A stretch of 64,000 nt of DNA from Candidatus Eiseniibacteriota bacterium (lineage in GTDB: Bacteria; Eisenbacteria; RBG-16-71-46). The translations under genes and the position numbers were made by a program. This document shows, in pieces, positions 24,576 through 30,631 of the stretch; the first letter of the stretch is position 1, and the number at the start of each line of letters is the position of its first letter. Location of the stretch: positions 2,880,001 through 2,944,000 of the forward strand of contig OY970178.1 of the NCBI GenBank assembly GCA_963707915.1. Direction: 5' to 3'. A model generated the notes under the pieces. That model worked only from the letters and a program-made list of their open reading frames with translations. It searched no databases and had not been told where the DNA came from.

Positions 24576-25628
24576 TCAACCCCGCTTCAGGCTCGCCAGG
24601 TCGATCACGAAGCGGTAGCGCACGTCGCCCTTCACCACCCGCGGGTAGGCCTCGTTGACGCGCTCGATCGGGATGACCTCGACGTCCGAGACCACGCCGT
24701 GCCGGCCGCAGAAGTCGAGCATCTCCTGGGTCTCGGCGATGCCGCCGATGAGCGAGCCCGCGAGGCGCCGGGCGCCGCTGATGAGCGAGAAGGCGTGCAG
24801 CGCGGTGGGCTCGGGCGGCACGCCGACCACGGCCATCGCGCCGTAGGGCCGCAGCAGCCGCAGCAGCGCGTTGTAGTCGTGCGGCGCGGAGACCGTGTCC
24901 ACGATCAGGTCCACGCGGCCGGCCAGCCGCCTGGCCGCCGCCTCGTCGCCGTGCAGCTCGAAGCCCGTGGCCCCGAGCCGCGCGGCGTCGGCCTGCTTGG
25001 CCCGCGAGGTGCTCAGCACGGTGACCTCCGCGCCCATCGCGGCGGCCAGCTTCACCGCCATGTGGCCCAGCCCGCCGAGGCCGGAGACCACGACGCGGTC
25101 GCCGGGTTTGCAGCCCCACTGGCGCAGCGGCGAGTAGGTGGTGATGCCGGCGCAGAGCAGGGGCGCGGCGGCCGCGGGGTCGAGGCCGTCCGGCACGCGC
25201 AGCACGAAGCGCTCGGCGACCACCACGTGGGTCGAGTAGCCGCCGTAGGTCGGGGTGCGCCGGTCCATCTCGGTGCTGTTGTAGGTGTACGCCGCGCCGC
25301 GCTCGCAGAACTGCTCGGTGTCGTGACGGCACGGTCCGCACTCCCGGCAGGAGTCGACCATGCAGCCCACGCCCACCAGGTCGCCGACCGCGAAGCGCGT
25401 CACCCGCGGGCCCACCGCGCTCACCCGCCCGACGATCTCGTGGCCGGGGACCATGGGGAAGACCTCGCCGCCCCACTCCCCGCGCGCCTGGTGGATGTCG
25501 GAGTGGCAGATGCCGCAGAACAGCACGTCGATGGCGACGTCGAGCGGGCCCGGCGCTCGGCGCTCCACGGCGAAGGGGGCGAGCGGGCTTCCGGTGGTGA
25601 GGGCCGCGTAGGCGGCGGCGTGTGGCAT
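24576..25628 (-). CDS. Zn-dependent NAD(P) alcohol dehydrogenase (cinnamyl-ADH type)
   Basis: CGICHSD, GHEIVG, CxxCxxC-x7-C, PLLCAGIT, GLGGLGH, YRFVID. Confidence 0.93.
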   Translation of the reverse strand: MPHAAAYAALTTGSPLAPFAVERRAPGPLDVAIDVLFCGICHSDIHQARGEWGGEVFPMVPGHEIVGRVSAVGPRVTRFAVGDLVGVGCMVDSCRECGPCRHDTEQFCERGAAYTYNSTEMDRRTPTYGGYSTHVVVAERFVLRVPDGLDPAAAAPLLCAGITTYSPLRQWGCKPGDRVVVSGLGGLGHMAVKLAAAMGAEVTVLSTSRAKQADAARLGATGFELHGDEAAARRLAGRVDLIVDTVSAPHDYNALLRLLRPYGAMAVVGVPPEPTALHAFSLISGARRLAGSLIGGIAETQEMLDFCGRHGVVSDVEVIPIERVNEAYPRVVKGDVRYRFVIDLASLKRG

Positions 25629-25932
25629 GGTCGGCTCCTGGGTCGGGGGCGTGGCGTCCTGCACGGCGGGCCGAAACTCGCGTCGCCGCAGCATATGCGT
25701 TCGGCGCGATCCTCGCACGCGCGGGGGAGCCCGCGGGGCGGCCCGGCCCGGCCCCCGGGCGACGGGCGCGGGGGCGTTCCCGATGGTATGCTTTCCGCTG
25801 CTTTGCCCCCTCAGGACAACTGCATCAGGACTCGCTTCTACACTCGCGTGCAGGGGTATTCCCCGGGCGATCACGGCGGAGGCCGGGATCGGGCCTGCGG
25901 TCGGAAGGCGCGCCTAACCGAGAGGTTGCGTC

Positions 25933-27285
25933 ATGGGTGATTCCAGCAAGACCCGCGTCATCATCATGGGAGCCGCCGGCCGGGACTTCCACAATTTCAA
26001 CGTCTACTGGAAGCAGCGTACGGACGTGGAAGTCGTGTGCTTCACCGCGGCGCAGATCCCCGACATCGCCGGCCGCGTCTACCCGCCGGTGCTGGCCGGC
26101 CCGCGGTACCCGCAGGGCATCCCGATCCACGCCGAGGACCAACTCGACGACCTGATCCGCGAGCACCGCGTCGACCTGGTGACCTTCTCCTACTCCGACG
26201 TGTCGCACGAGAATCTCATGCACCAGGCCTGCCGGGTGAACGCGGCGGGGGCGCAGTTCTCGCTGCTGGGCGCCGCCCAGACCATGATCGAGAGCACCCG
26301 GCCGGTCATCGCGGTGGGCGCCGTGCGCACCGGCTGCGGCAAGAGCCAGACCTCTCGACGTGTCGCCGAGATCCTCAAGGGCATGGGCAAGAAGGTGGCG
26401 GTGGTGCGGCACCCGATGCCCTACGGCGACCTCGCCCGGCAGGCGGTGCAGTGTTTCGCCAGCGTCGCCGACATGGACGCGGCCGAGTGCACCATCGAGG
26501 AGCGCGAGGAGTACGAGCCGCACACCGCGATGGGCAACCTGGTCTTCGCGGGGGTGGACTACGAGGCCATCCTGCGCCGCGCCGAGCAGGAGGCCGACGT
26601 GATCCTGTGGGACGGCGGCAACAACGACACGCCGTTCTACCGCCCCGACCTCAACATCGTGGTGGCCGACCCGCACCGCCCCGGCCACGAGCTGCGGTAC
26701 TACCCGGGCGAGACCAACGTGCGCATGGCCGACATCGTCGTGATCAACAAGGTGGACACCGCGGACCCGGAGGCCATCCAGACGGTCGAGGCGAACGTGC
26801 GCGCGCTGAATCCGAAGGCGATCGTCCTGCGGGCCAACTCCCCGGTCACGGTGGAACAGCCCGAGTCGGTCAAGGGCAAGCGCGTGCTGGTGATCGAGGA
26901 CGGGCCGACGCTCACCCACGGCGAGATGCGTTACGGCGCCGGCCTGGTCGCCGCGCACAAGCTGCAGGCCGGCGAGATCGTGGACCCGCGGCCGTACGCG
27001 CAGGGCTCCATCCGGCAGGTGTTCGAGAAGTACTCGCACCTCACCCAGATCCTGCCGGCCATGGGCTACGGCGAGCGGCAGATCGCCGAGCTCTCGGCCA
27101 CCATCGCCGCGGTCCCGTGCGACCTGGTGCTGATCGCCACGCCCATCGACCTGCGGCACGTCCTCACCATCGACAAGCCCTCGACGCGCGTGATGTACGA
27201 GCTCGAGGAACACGACCGGACCGTCCTGCCGCGCGCCATCGCGAAGGTCCTGGCGGTGCAGAAGGGAGCCACGCCCCATGCCTAA
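25933..27285 (+). CDS. arcE: COG2403 P-loop protein (cDPG-synthetase-like), probable arginine synthetase ArcE
   Basis: GAAGRDFHNFN, FTAAQIP, AVRTGCGKSQT, RHPMPYG, WDGGNND, EDGPTLTHG, PAMGY; overlaps the OTC gene. Confidence 0.75.
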   Translation: MGDSSKTRVIIMGAAGRDFHNFNVYWKQRTDVEVVCFTAAQIPDIAGRVYPPVLAGPRYPQGIPIHAEDQLDDLIREHRVDLVTFSYSDVSHENLMHQACRVNAAGAQFSLLGAAQTMIESTRPVIAVGAVRTGCGKSQTSRRVAEILKGMGKKVAVVRHPMPYGDLARQAVQCFASVADMDAAECTIEEREEYEPHTAMGNLVFAGVDYEAILRRAEQEADVILWDGGNNDTPFYRPDLNIVVADPHRPGHELRYYPGETNVRMADIVVINKVDTADPEAIQTVEANVRALNPKAIVLRANSPVTVEQPESVKGKRVLVIEDGPTLTHGEMRYGAGLVAAHKLQAGEIVDPRPYAQGSIRQVFEKYSHLTQILPAMGYGERQIAELSATIAAVPCDLVLIATPIDLRHVLTIDKPSTRVMYELEEHDRTVLPRAIAKVLAVQKGATPHA

Positions 27286-28204
27286 CCCGAGCTATCTCTC
27301 GGTCAAGGACCTCACGGCGGCCCGGACGCTGGAGGTCCTGGAGCTCGCCGCCCGTCTCAAGCGGGAGGTCAAGGCCGGCATTCCGCACCCGCGGCTCGCC
27401 GGCAAGACCCTGGCGATGATCTTCCAGAAGCCCTCGCTGCGGACGCGCGTCTCGTTCGAGGTCGGGATGACGCAGCTCGGGGGGCACGCCATCTACCTCG
27501 GGCCCTCCGACATCAAGCTGGGCGAGCGCGAGACGGTGGAGGACATCGCCCTGACGATCTCGCGCATGTGCGACGTGATCATGGCGCGCGTGTTCGGGCA
27601 CGACAGCGTGGCGGGGCTGGCCCGGCACGCCACGGTGCCGGTCATCAACGCGCTCTCGGACCGCGAGCACCCGTGCCAGATCCTCGCCGACCTGCAGACC
27701 ATCCAGGAGCGCAAGGGCCGCTTCGAGGGGATCAAGGCCGTGTTCGTGGGGGACGGCAACAACGTGGCCCAGTCGTTCCTCTACGGCGGCGCCCTGCTGG
27801 GGATGAGCGTCACGGTGGCCTGCCCGGCGGGCTACGAGCCGCTGGCGGAGATCGTGGCGGACGCGAAGGCCATGGGGGCGCGGACCGGGGCGGCGATCGC
27901 CGTCTCGAACGACCTGGCGGGCGCCTGCCGCGGCGCCGACGTGCTCTACACCGACGTCTGGGCCAGCATGGGACAGGAGGCGGAGGCCGCGAAGCGGAAG
28001 CACGACTTCAGCGGCTGGCAGATCGACGCCGCGCTCCTGGCGGTGGCGAAGCCCGACGCGACCATCCTGCATTGTCTCCCCGCGCACTACGGCGAGGAGA
28101 TCGACTACGCCGCCTCGCGCACGGCCCACTCGGCCATCTTCGACCAGGCCGAGAACCGGCTGCACGCGCAGAAGGCGCTGATGCTGTACCTGATGGGTGC
28201 CTGA
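27278..28204 (+). CDS. argF: Ornithine carbamoyltransferase
   Basis: KPSLRTRVSF, HPCQ, GDGNN, DVWASMG, HCLP, QAENR. Confidence 0.93.
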   Translation: MPNPSYLSVKDLTAARTLEVLELAARLKREVKAGIPHPRLAGKTLAMIFQKPSLRTRVSFEVGMTQLGGHAIYLGPSDIKLGERETVEDIALTISRMCDVIMARVFGHDSVAGLARHATVPVINALSDREHPCQILADLQTIQERKGRFEGIKAVFVGDGNNVAQSFLYGGALLGMSVTVACPAGYEPLAEIVADAKAMGARTGAAIAVSNDLAGACRGADVLYTDVWASMGQEAEAAKRKHDFSGWQIDAALLAVAKPDATILHCLPAHYGEEIDYAASRTAHSAIFDQAENRLHAQKALMLYLMGA

Positions 28205-28226
28205 GGCCGGGGCGAAGGAGGCAGCC

Positions 28227-29081
28227 ATGAATGATCGGACGGGACCGGACGGGACGGCGGCGACGCTGCGCGGCGTCGCGGCGATCGTGATCGTGGGCGT
28301 GGCGCTGGGCCTGGCGTTCAACGCGCTGGGCCTGGCGAGCAAGCCGCCGCGCGGGCTGTCGTGGATCACGCAGCCGGAGAGGATGCCGAGCCTCGAGGAG
28401 CTGCAGCCCGGCTCCCTGCTGGCGCCGCCGCCCGCGGCCCGGCCGCCGTCGGCGCCCGGGCTCTCGCTGGTGGGGACCGCCTGGGCGGGCGGGGTCGCGC
28501 CGCCCGCCGCCGCGCGCGACACGGTCCGCGCCGCGCCGGGCAAGCCGGCCGGGTCCGTGGCGAAGAAGCCGGCGGCGAGGAAGGCGCCGGCGCGGAGGGT
28601 CCCCGTCACGGCGGTGAAGAAGCCGGTGCCGGTGCCGGCGTCCGTGACGAAGGTCCCTGCGACGGTGCCCGGCGCCGTCGTCGCGCCGGTCGTGACGAAG
28701 GCGGACCTGCCGGTGGTCCCGGACCTGGACCAGCCAATCGAAGTGAAGCTCGCGAACGTGAAGAAGTTCTTCGACGCCGGCGCGGCGGTCTTCGTGGATG
28801 CGCGCGAGGCCCCGGAGTACGCCGAGGGGCACATCGCCGGCGCCCTGAGCGTGCCCTTCGACGACGCGGTGAGGAACCCGGCCCTGCTCGAGCCGTTCAA
28901 GCGGGCGGGCAAGCCGCTCATCCTCTACTGCAGCGGCGGCGACTGCGAGCTCTCGAAGGACCTGGCCAGGAACATGCTGGCGGACGGCATCCGCAAGGTG
29001 CTGGTCTTCACCGACGGCATGCCCGCCTGGAAGGCGGCCGGCTACCCGACGGAGACGGGGCCGGCGAAGGTGGCGCGGTGA
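28227..29081 (+). CDS. Membrane-anchored rhodanese-domain protein
   Basis: N-terminal TM, Pro/Ala/Lys linker, VDAR..EYAEGHIAGA, LYCSGGDC, GMPAW. Confidence 0.85.
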   Translation: MNDRTGPDGTAATLRGVAAIVIVGVALGLAFNALGLASKPPRGLSWITQPERMPSLEELQPGSLLAPPPAARPPSAPGLSLVGTAWAGGVAPPAAARDTVRAAPGKPAGSVAKKPAARKAPARRVPVTAVKKPVPVPASVTKVPATVPGAVVAPVVTKADLPVVPDLDQPIEVKLANVKKFFDAGAAVFVDAREAPEYAEGHIAGALSVPFDDAVRNPALLEPFKRAGKPLILYCSGGDCELSKDLARNMLADGIRKVLVFTDGMPAWKAAGYPTETGPAKVAR

Positions 29082-29497
29082 GCGGCGTGCTGACCGGCAC
29101 CCCGGTGCGCCGCGGCGCGCAGATCGTGCTGGGGGCGCTGTTCCTGGTGGCGGCGCTCGCCAAGATCGTGGACGTCGCGAGCCTGGCGCGGGAGGTCCAC
29201 AACTTCCGCATCGTGCCGTTCTGGTCCGAGCACCTGGTGGCGATGACCCTGCCGTGGGTCGAGTTGGTGGCCGGTCTCGCGCTGGTGCTGGGCATCCGGC
29301 CCCGCGCGGGCGCCTGGGTGGCCGGGGTGCTGCTCGCGGGCTTCACGGTCGGCGTCGCCCTGGCCATGGCGCGCGGCCTCAACTTCCACTGCGGATGCTT
29401 CGGCACCGCGGACGCCACGCGTATCGGCTGGTCCAAGCTGGGCGAGAACCTCGGGATGCTCGCGCTGGCGGTGGTGGGGTCGCTCGGGCGGAAGTAG
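29078..29497 (+). CDS. MauE/DoxX membrane protein
   Basis: LPWVEL, RGLNFHCGCFG, four TM segments; GTGA overlap with the rhodanese gene. Confidence 0.85.
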   Translation: MSGVLTGTPVRRGAQIVLGALFLVAALAKIVDVASLAREVHNFRIVPFWSEHLVAMTLPWVELVAGLALVLGIRPRAGAWVAGVLLAGFTVGVALAMARGLNFHCGCFGTADATRIGWSKLGENLGMLALAVVGSLGRK

Positions 29498-29632
29498 CCG
29501 GGGGGGCTGGTCGGCGCGGGGCCTGGTTGGCGTAGGGGCCGGGACGCCGGGGGGCGAGCGCATGGTGCCTCTGCTCGCCCACCGGCGTCCCGGCCCCCGC
29601 GCGATTGCCTCCGAGCGTCCGGGCCCGGCCTG

Positions 29633-30631
29633 TCAGTACGTCTTCGCGCCCGCCTTCACCACCCGGGCCAGAGCCCCCGCCAGCCCCTCGTGCAGCGCCT
29701 TGACCTCCTCGGGCTGCCAGTCCTTGCGGTCCTTGCGCACGAACGTGGTCTTGTCGACGCGGTTGTCGAAGCGGCCCACCGGCAGGTACCAGGAGCGGCC
29801 GTGGGCCTCGATCTTCACCGTGTCGGGGCGGTCCGAGTGCTGGAGCAACCACTCCATGTCGTCGCAGCCGTAGTCGCCGAGCATCACCGCCATCGGCACG
29901 CCGTGGTGCAGGATCGAGCCCGGGTCGTTGGGGTCGGTGCGTTCGATGTTCTTGCGGCGCGACTCCTCCGGCGCGACCCAGACGTAGAGCACCGAGGCGC
30001 GCGCGAGGATCTCCTCGGAGAGCACGGCGAACGAGTACCGGTAGCCGAGCGGCGCCGGCAGGGGCATCGCGGACTTGTCCGGGCCGCCGCGCGCGAACTC
30101 GATCACCACGGTGCGGCCCTGGAGCGAGTCGGGGATGCCGGCGTTCTTCTCGCGCAGCAACTCGGCGCACTCGGCTTCGAGCGCCTCGACCAGCTCGCCG
30201 CGCACGGCGGGATCGAGCTGGCCGAGCGCCGGACGCGCGCCGACCTTGCGGCGCGCGGCGTCGAAGCGGTCCAGCAGCCACTCGGCGGCCGGGCACCCGC
30301 TGGAGGCGGGGCGCGGGGCCGGGCGGTGCCGCTGGACGAGGTCGTCGAAGTCCTCGTTCAGCAGCTCCATCAGCGTCCCCCAGTCGCGCTGCTCCTTCAT
30401 CGGCAGCTCGTCGGAGTCGAAGAACAGCCCGTCCTGGCCGCGCTTGCGCAGCTCCTGGCTGATGCGCCGCATCATGTGGACGTAGGGGTAGTCGTCGAGC
30501 TGGACGGTGGGTCCCACGTGCATCTCGTCGCGACACTGCTCGGGGGTGAGGCCCGCGAGGTAGCGACGGACTTCCGACTTGCCCGAGGCGGGCAGGGCCG
30601 TGAGCAGCAGGACGTCGATCAGGCTGGACAT
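29633..30631 (-). CDS. Uncharacterised P-loop NTPase-like protein
   Basis: LLLTALPASGKSE (Walker A-like), VVIEFARGG; codon pattern fits a real gene. Confidence 0.7.
   Translation of the reverse strand: MSSLIDVLLLTALPASGKSEVRRYLAGLTPEQCRDEMHVGPTVQLDDYPYVHMMRRISQELRKRGQDGLFFDSDELPMKEQRDWGTLMELLNEDFDDLVQRHRPAPRPASSGCPAAEWLLDRFDAARRKVGARPALGQLDPAVRGELVEALEAECAELLREKNAGIPDSLQGRTVVIEFARGGPDKSAMPLPAPLGYRYSFAVLSEEILARASVLYVWVAPEESRRKNIERTDPNDPGSILHHGVPMAVMLGDYGCDDMEWLLQHSDRPDTVKIEAHGRSWYLPVGRFDNRVDKTTFVRKDRKDWQPEEVKALHEGLAGALARVVKAGAKTY

Follow-up and report, generated by a model that had tools for sequence, protein, structure and literature searches.

The subject of this analysis is a pair of overlapping genes on a 64,000-nucleotide (nt) stretch of DNA from Candidatus Eiseniibacteriota bacterium (contig OY970178.1, positions 2,880,001-2,944,000, referred to as the window), whose genome is assembled as one contig of 3.62 Mb and is 94.8% complete. 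The first gene, arcE, encodes a protein of the arginine synthetase family, and the second encodes an ornithine carbamoyltransferase (OTC). The window has a G+C content of 73%, and arcE, which is present in a single copy in the genome, reaches 0.96 at third codon positions. As an earlier note on this DNA had stated, the two reading frames overlap by 8 nt, and this overlap is real, since the OTC gene starts with an ATG at 27278, while the arcE stop codon runs to 27285. The locus comprises the following features:

25767..25932, + strand: conserved, probably structured leader of arcE; genus-specific, apart from weak matches in a neighbouring genus
25933..27285, + strand: arcE (P0001), arginine synthetase-family P-loop enzyme of 450 amino acids, recognised by a stop-free frame and motifs
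27278..28204, + strand: arcB/argF (P0002), OTC of 308 amino acids; the only OTC of the genome, belonging to an ArcE-linked lineage
28197..29081, + strand: P0004, membrane-anchored rhodanese-domain protein of 294 amino acids with a GTG start

The neighbourhood of arcE and the OTC gene is not due to chance, as it is kept in 7/7 genomes of the genus, where the OTC gene immediately follows arcE, and in 26 of the 30 ArcE-positive genomes of the family, where the two genes share a contig and are no more than 3 kb apart.

P0001 contains all four motifs by which the earlier note had recognised it, namely GAAGRDFHNFN (residues 13-23), TGCGKSQT (133-140), WDGGNND (226-232), and EDGPTLTHG (322-330). In addition, P0001 keeps all positions that do not vary among 14 aligned, diverse homologs (G13, G16-R17-D18, T133-G134..G136-K137-S138, R159-H160-P161-M162, W226-D232, and D323..H329-G330), the P-loop among them. 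No NCBIfam model matches P0001, and Pfam assigns to it only a weak cobW P-loop match (23.2 bits). The protein has at least 8000 homologs, the nearest of which are 70%–95% identical, are annotated only as "predicted GTPase" or "cyclic 2,3-diphosphoglycerate synthase", and, where named, belong to Candidatus Eisenbacteria and Planctomycetes metagenome-assembled genomes. A search of 1.84 billion cluster representatives yielded 3529 matches (655 at E ≤ 1e-30). ArcE homologs at 80 loci across many bacterial and archaeal phyla are 59%–70% identical to P0001, and for those of Bathyarchaeia, Thermoplasmata, and Aciduliprofundum the range is 59%–65%; the closest named archaeal relative found, P0140 (annotated as "GTPase", Thermoproteota archaeon), has 47% identity (394 bits). 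One cluster representative from outside the window, P0249, is an 806-residue ArcE homolog split by an intein with a LAGLIDADG domain.

These public labels would be explained if P0001 were a cyclic 2,3-diphosphoglycerate (cDPG) synthetase, or a P-loop kinase or GTPase with another substrate, and its OTC neighbour were incidental. The weak cobW match would fit such a reading, as would the fact that a single ArcE-family member has been assayed so far, and the best solved fold points the same way: the AlphaFold model of P0001 (predicted local distance difference test score 92.7) has as its top Foldseek match the cDPG synthetase of Methanothermus fervidus (8ORU/8ORK), likewise a P-loop enzyme and the best structural match over the whole length, with LpxK next. 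However, this match (8ORU, E 1.3e-17) has 15% identity and a template modelling (TM) score of 0.47, and the best solved cDPG synthetase in a phmmer search against the PDB reaches 27 bits (E 2e-5) over ~110 residues (213-325 only), with sequence-search alignments confined to residues 213-368. True cDPG synthetases are absent among the 150 P0001-similar cluster representatives listed, being too distant, and the relation was therefore judged from the PDB searches. P0001 thus has no close sequence kinship to a characterised cDPG synthetase, and its low similarity to these enzymes is what is expected of the ArcE family. Its gene context also differs from that of a cDPG synthetase, as it concerns arginine and carbamoyl phosphate and is not glycolytic; linkage to OTC and/or carbamate kinase (CK) genes recurs across phyla (27/80 loci), and a CK–ArcE gene fusion and the phylum-wide co-occurrence of ArcE with CK, both described below, argue further against a substrate other than arginine. 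We regard this explanation as the least probable of those considered here.

According to the available text of Michimori et al. (PMC11032458), ArcE has low similarity to cDPG synthetases, its homologs are widespread in bacteria, and some of the genes lie near arcB and/or arcC; membership of P0001 in the family fits this account. The supplementary information defines the family by BLASTP E < 1e-100 to TK2200 and a length of more than 380 amino acids, with cDPG synthetases as the outgroup. P0001 very probably belongs to the ArcE family, judging by family-level similarity and gene context, and the similarity values support the earlier proposal that it is of the ArcE type and not a true cDPG synthetase. 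The Thermococcus kodakarensis enzyme catalyses arginine + ADP + Pi = citrulline + NH3 + ATP, as the note had quoted correctly from the published work (PMC11032458, excerpts), and by analogy P0001 would interconvert arginine and citrulline in the same way.

The identity of the second gene is clear. P0002 scores above the NCBIfam cut-offs for OTC (NF001986, 413.7 bits, cut-off 306; TIGR00658, 381.3 bits, cut-off 280.85) and holds both Pfam OTC domains, OTCace_N and OTCace. It contains the stretches SLRTR, HPCQ, WASMGQE, and HCLPAH, which we take to be the SxRTR, HPxQ, SMG, and HCLP motifs of OTCs; the latter two had already been noticed. No OTC other than P0002 scores above the cut-off in the genome. 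A tree was built from 56 OTCs by a quick method, with the PyrB of this genome as its root and with Shimodaira–Hasegawa-like approximate likelihood ratio test (SH-aLRT) support only. In it, 16 OTCs from arg clusters form one clade (SH-aLRT 100) and 23 ArcE-linked OTCs form a separate clade (SH-aLRT 100), which contains P0002 and the copies of all six congeners. Most ArcE-positive genomes of the family encode two OTCs, one scoring ~380-400 bits near arcE and one scoring ~340 bits near argG/argB. ArcE-negative family genomes have only the ~340-bit, arg-linked kind, and the genus of the window has only the ArcE-linked one. Of the 22 family loci outside the genus, 19 have a class-III aminotransferase gene that separates arcE from the OTC gene (e.g. 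L017:2855-4081), an arrangement that looks like a catabolic operon leading from arginine via ornithine to glutamate semialdehyde.

A link between ArcE and CK is found throughout the phylum. We surveyed 201 genomes sampled from the phylum of the window; as these genomes are related and hence not independent, the counts describe a pattern and do not constitute a statistical test. ArcE is encoded in 128 and CK in 139 of them, with both present in 124 genomes, ArcE alone in four (70%–88% complete), CK alone in 15, and neither in 58. A natural CK–ArcE fusion is found in the cluster representative P0130 (766 amino acids), the N-terminal part of which matches NF009007 (313.8 bits, cut-off 266) and the ArcE part of which is 51% identical to P0001. 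At the 80 cross-phylum arcE loci, CK genes occur within 6 kb in 25 cases and OTC genes in 13, including 11 with both; where both are near arcE, the three genes mostly share a strand and run arcE-arcC-arcB. Arginine deiminase (ADI), the first enzyme of the alternative arcABC route, has no match to TIGR01078 at E ≤ 0.001 anywhere in the genome, and the ADI-like matches in 19/201 phylum genomes are all below the cut-off.

The earlier note had remarked that arcA, arcC, argG, and argH are missing from the window and that no CK gene adjoins the pair. Both statements hold for the window, and a search of the whole genome, which the note had proposed, located argG and argH at 2.64 Mb and arcC at 1.66 Mb, so a CK gene exists elsewhere; arcA was not found. 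The arcC match (1655253-1656183, minus strand) is spread over two frames scoring 262.7 and 90.7 bits (cut-off 358.25), and the frame breaks at a run of five identical bases (1655878-1655882). CK is encoded in one frame in five congeners (366-370 bits), and contigs of related populations (three DNA runs and one RNA run) have one base fewer exactly at this homopolymer. No public run contained half or more of the words of the arcC stretch (best 0.29). An assembly error is a plausible cause of the frameshift, the alternative being a strain-specific pseudogene. The surrounding cluster (1652985-1660838) also encodes a YgeW-like knotted carbamoyltransferase (380.5 bits, below cut-off), a YgeY-like hydrolase, and a 711-residue open frame that combines a threonine-synthase-like part with an aspartate carbamoyltransferase-like part (224.7 bits, slightly below the pyrB cut-off).

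The genome has no recognisable carbamoyl phosphate synthetase (CPS). In a profile search of the single contig, the best matches are 52 bits for carB (cut-off 1027) and 50 bits for carA (cut-off 307), whereas both models match in 14/14 control genomes. Of the 201 phylum genomes, 169 have carB, but it was not found in five of the six congeners. A pyr cluster is nevertheless present (2216509-2223698, minus strand), comprising pyrC-like, pyrE, pyrF, pyrB, pyrD (type 1B), and pyrK genes without carA or carB. Its pyrB (354-357 bits) and pyrD (297.9 bits) are above the cut-offs, while pyrK (217.7 bits, cut-off 224), pyrE (101 bits, cut-off 106.8), pyrF, and the pyrC-like gene are below them despite being clustered. 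The PyrB protein is only 36%–40% identical to the aspartate carbamoyltransferases of the congeners, which suggests that the operon may have been acquired or replaced. An aspartate carbamoyltransferase without CPS needs another source of carbamoyl phosphate. The absence of CPS, which the earlier note had not covered, changes the likely purpose of the arcE operon. In T. kodakarensis, which lacks CPS, the genetic data in the accessible sections of PMC13260591 show that ArcE and ArcB supply carbamoyl phosphate: deletion of arcE or arcB causes a pyrimidine requirement and deletion of arcC has little effect. Those sections treat Thermococcales only. By analogy, the operon described here may supply carbamoyl phosphate for pyrimidines.

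Because ArcE co-occurs with CK and is naturally fused to it, ADI is missing, and P0002 falls in the ArcE-linked OTC clade, we favour a catabolic role. With a probability of roughly 65%, arcE and the OTC gene make up a catabolic module, coupled in translation, that covers steps one and two of the arginine synthetase pathway. ArcE would convert arginine, ADP, and Pi to citrulline, NH3, and ATP, and the OTC, acting as ArcB, would phosphorolyse citrulline to ornithine and carbamoyl phosphate. CK, encoded elsewhere in the genome, would then convert carbamoyl phosphate to yield a second ATP; since the genome lacks CPS, part of the carbamoyl phosphate would likely also feed aspartate carbamoyltransferase and the pyr operon. 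That flux runs in this direction, and that the module is a source of carbamoyl phosphate, is what we infer. Of the two roles put forward in the earlier note, energy-conserving arginine breakdown thus fits the genomic data, while the replacement of ArgG and ArgH does not, for the following reasons.

In a biosynthetic replacement, a single ArcE-catalysed reaction of citrulline, NH3, and ATP would yield arginine and take the place of ArgG and ArgH. Coupling to the only OTC of the genome would suit such a citrulline-to-arginine route, and T. kodakarensis ArcE can work in this direction in vivo (PMC11032458, available text). However, argG (430 bits) and argH (399.6 bits) are present, intact, and adjoining, within an argC-argB-argD-argG-argH cluster that lies 240 kb from arcE and contains no OTC gene. 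The last gene of this cluster (2639882-2641846, minus strand) encodes, by its predicted domains, an ArgH-ArgA-type fusion, in which ArgH carries a C-terminal N-acetyltransferase domain at residues 503-651 (NF005840, 169.3 bits). ArgG/ArgH and ArcE are alike in linking citrulline to arginine at the expense of ATP, but ArgG/ArgH are unrelated to ArcE and use aspartate in a two-step reaction; as they are separately present, ArcE is not needed as their substitute.

The phylum survey points in the same direction. ArcE and ArgG occur together in 43 genomes, ArcE without ArgG in 85, ArgG without ArcE in 59, and neither in 14. ArgG is instead gained and lost together with ArgB (both in 94 genomes, ArgG only in eight, ArgB only in four, neither in 95), and ArcE tracks CK, a catabolic enzyme. 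In family f7, ArcE is found in 40/41, CK in 40/41, and OTC in 39/41 genomes with ArgG and ArgB in 0/41 each, and in family f13 ArcE, CK, and OTC are found in 14/14 each with ArgG and ArgB in 0/14 each. Since ArgB is gone along with ArgG, no ornithine synthesis remains that a one-step citrulline-to-arginine enzyme could serve, and these ArgG-less lineages look like auxotrophs that degrade arginine, which is the T. kodakarensis pattern, and not like users of a one-step route. The four genomes with ArgB and without ArgG are only 58%–87% complete, and we therefore rejected ArcE as a replacement of ArgG/ArgH anywhere in the phylum. For the genome studied here, we consider this role very unlikely, if slightly less so than an enzyme unrelated to arginine.

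Arginine biosynthesis itself varies within the genus. ArcE, CK, and OTC are encoded in all six congeners, ArgG and ArgB in two each. Neither argB nor argG was found in the other four, G106, G109, G120, and G166 (81%–93% complete, G120 in 5 contigs), which retain the arcE-OTC pair and CK. Thus, arginine biosynthesis seems to be in the process of being lost in this genus: three of its seven genomes have the genes, and in the other four they were not found.

The retention of intact argC, argB, argD, argG, and the argH–acetyltransferase fusion in a genome with no OTC besides P0002 leads to another explanation, in which the pair is a reversible two-way module: ArcE, working near equilibrium, and the single OTC would run towards arginine when it is scarce and towards citrulline, ornithine, and carbamoyl phosphate when it is plentiful. 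In the anabolic mode, CK running in reverse would make carbamoyl phosphate, and ArgG/ArgH or ArcE would complete arginine. The equilibrium constant (Keq) of ~10 and the growth of T. kodakarensis on citrulline via ArcE, both given in the available parts of PMC11032458, are consistent with this explanation. Against it, the absence of CPS makes the anabolic direction dependent on carbamoyl phosphate formation by CK, a route that did not support growth of T. kodakarensis (PMC13260591, accessible sections), and the CK gene is frameshifted in the assembly. Moreover, four of the six congeners keep the operon although neither argB nor argG was found in them. We hold a two-way module to be improbable on balance, but clearly more credible than the replacement of ArgG/ArgH.

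Several observations weigh against the catabolic module that we favour. The ArcE reaction is near equilibrium, and therefore sequence alone cannot fix its direction. The orthology of P0001 and ArcE is drawn from family-level similarity and gene context. The arginine auxotrophy of T. kodakarensis, marked by the lack of ArgG and ArgH, is not shared, as this genome keeps argC-argB-argD-argG-argH(A); with a single OTC, any synthesis of arginine would require this same enzyme to work in the anabolic direction. The class-III aminotransferase found between arcE and the OTC gene elsewhere in the family is missing in the genus, which has lost this gene; the nearest match in the genome is argD, with 35% identity. 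If the frameshift in the CK gene is real, the second ATP would be lost in this organism. Reverse CK activity, or the neighbouring YgeW-type carbamoyltransferase cluster, are other possible sources of carbamoyl phosphate, and one congener (G106) has carB, adjoining a pyrB. Finally, genomes without CPS are only mildly enriched for ArcE (25/32 vs. 128/201), too weakly for us to use this enrichment as an argument, and it was set aside.

Compared with known systems, the closest parallel to the catabolic module is the arginine synthetase pathway of T. kodakarensis, which consists of ArcE (TK2200), ArcB (TK0871), and ArcC (TK2158) (PMC11032458 and PMC13260591, in the parts available), with the Keq of ArcE determined at 80 °C (PMC11032458, same excerpts). 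Both organisms have genes for an ArcE-family protein, OTC, and CK and none for ADI, and both lack CPS while having genes for pyrimidine synthesis. They differ in that the host here is a mesophile-type bacterium with 73% G+C, that translational coupling joins arcE to arcB here, while the locus numbers of the three T. kodakarensis genes are far apart, that argC-B-D-G-H are present here and absent there, and that the CK gene, which has a frameshift in the assembly, is part of a YgeW/YgeY-type cluster. The ADI pathway (arcABC) has the same net outcome, in which arginine is broken down via OTC and CK to ornithine, NH3, and CO2 with a gain of ATP, but its first step is catalysed by the hydrolytic ArcA, for which this genome has no gene, instead of an ATP-forming P-loop enzyme; according to the accessible sections of PMC13260591, the arginine synthetase pathway yields two ATP per arginine compared to one in the ADI pathway.

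Downstream of the pair, the P0004 gene shares its first 8 nt with the end of the OTC gene, and the protein contains a Pfam Rhodanese domain (51.9 bits, residues 188-281). A homologue lies directly 3' of the OTC gene in all six congeners (L012, L013, L014, L015, L016, and L028; tblastn), so that P0004 may be the third gene of the operon. It is followed by a gene for a MauE/DoxX-family membrane protein (28197-29497 for both genes), and nothing obvious ties either to arginine metabolism. Upstream of arcE, a zinc alcohol dehydrogenase is encoded on the opposite strand. A scan of positions 25400-29800 for promoters and terminators gave no match.

The region upstream of arcE can be aligned among six genomes of the genus only from ~170 nt before the ATG. 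The predicted fold (RNAalifold) is a multi-helix structure with a variable inserted hairpin and has 37 pairs, five of them with compensatory changes; 94.1% of cells are paired compared to 36%–50% in slid controls, values that are a hint only, as they come from six related sequences from which the fold itself was derived. A covariance model built from this alignment (R1) matches the window at 25767-25935 and its six source congeners. Beyond this set, it has weak matches at two loci, L023 (E 0.0024) and L019 (E 0.4), both upstream of arcE in one neighbouring genus. The motif occurs once in the genome, and no Rfam family matches it at E ≤ 10. The arcE leader may be a regulatory RNA.

Taken together, these features can be joined into a wider and more tentative picture, which we offer as a possibility somewhat short of an even chance. 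In it, the genus would have lost CPS, the arcE-arcB operon would be its only route to carbamoyl phosphate, and arginine would be an obligatory nutrient for both pyrimidines and ATP; arginine synthesis would be in transition (three of seven genomes vs. four), and the genus-specific leader would act as the sensor that sets the flux. If true, this would be the first bacterial case of a Thermococcus-type carbamoyl phosphate economy.

The occurrence of bacterial ArcE homologs near arcB/arcC was already known from the 2024 paper (PMC11032458, as far as available). Arginine synthetase was described only in that year, and all experiments come from one hyperthermophilic archaeon; our literature search on arginine synthetase (ArcE, citrulline) found no paper on bacteria, and a search on Eisenbacteria with arginine found nothing relevant. 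What is new here is a one-contig genome without carA/carB yet with a full pyr operon, and specific to it are the tight coupling of arcE to the sole OTC gene, the loss of CPS in the genus despite the pyr pathway, and the apparent disappearance of the arg genes. The ArcE assignment would correct a common mis-annotation of these proteins as "cyclic 2,3-diphosphoglycerate synthase" or "GTPase", and the two OTC lineages, linked to arg clusters and to ArcE, respectively, offer a simple marker for anabolic and catabolic OTCs in the phylum. Such genomes would otherwise be classed as incapable of pyrimidine synthesis when the metabolism of uncultured bacteria is reconstructed. A bacterial arcE-OTC operon in a genome that has a pyr operon and lacks CPS provides a concrete test of whether bacteria use arginine as a carbamoyl phosphate donor.

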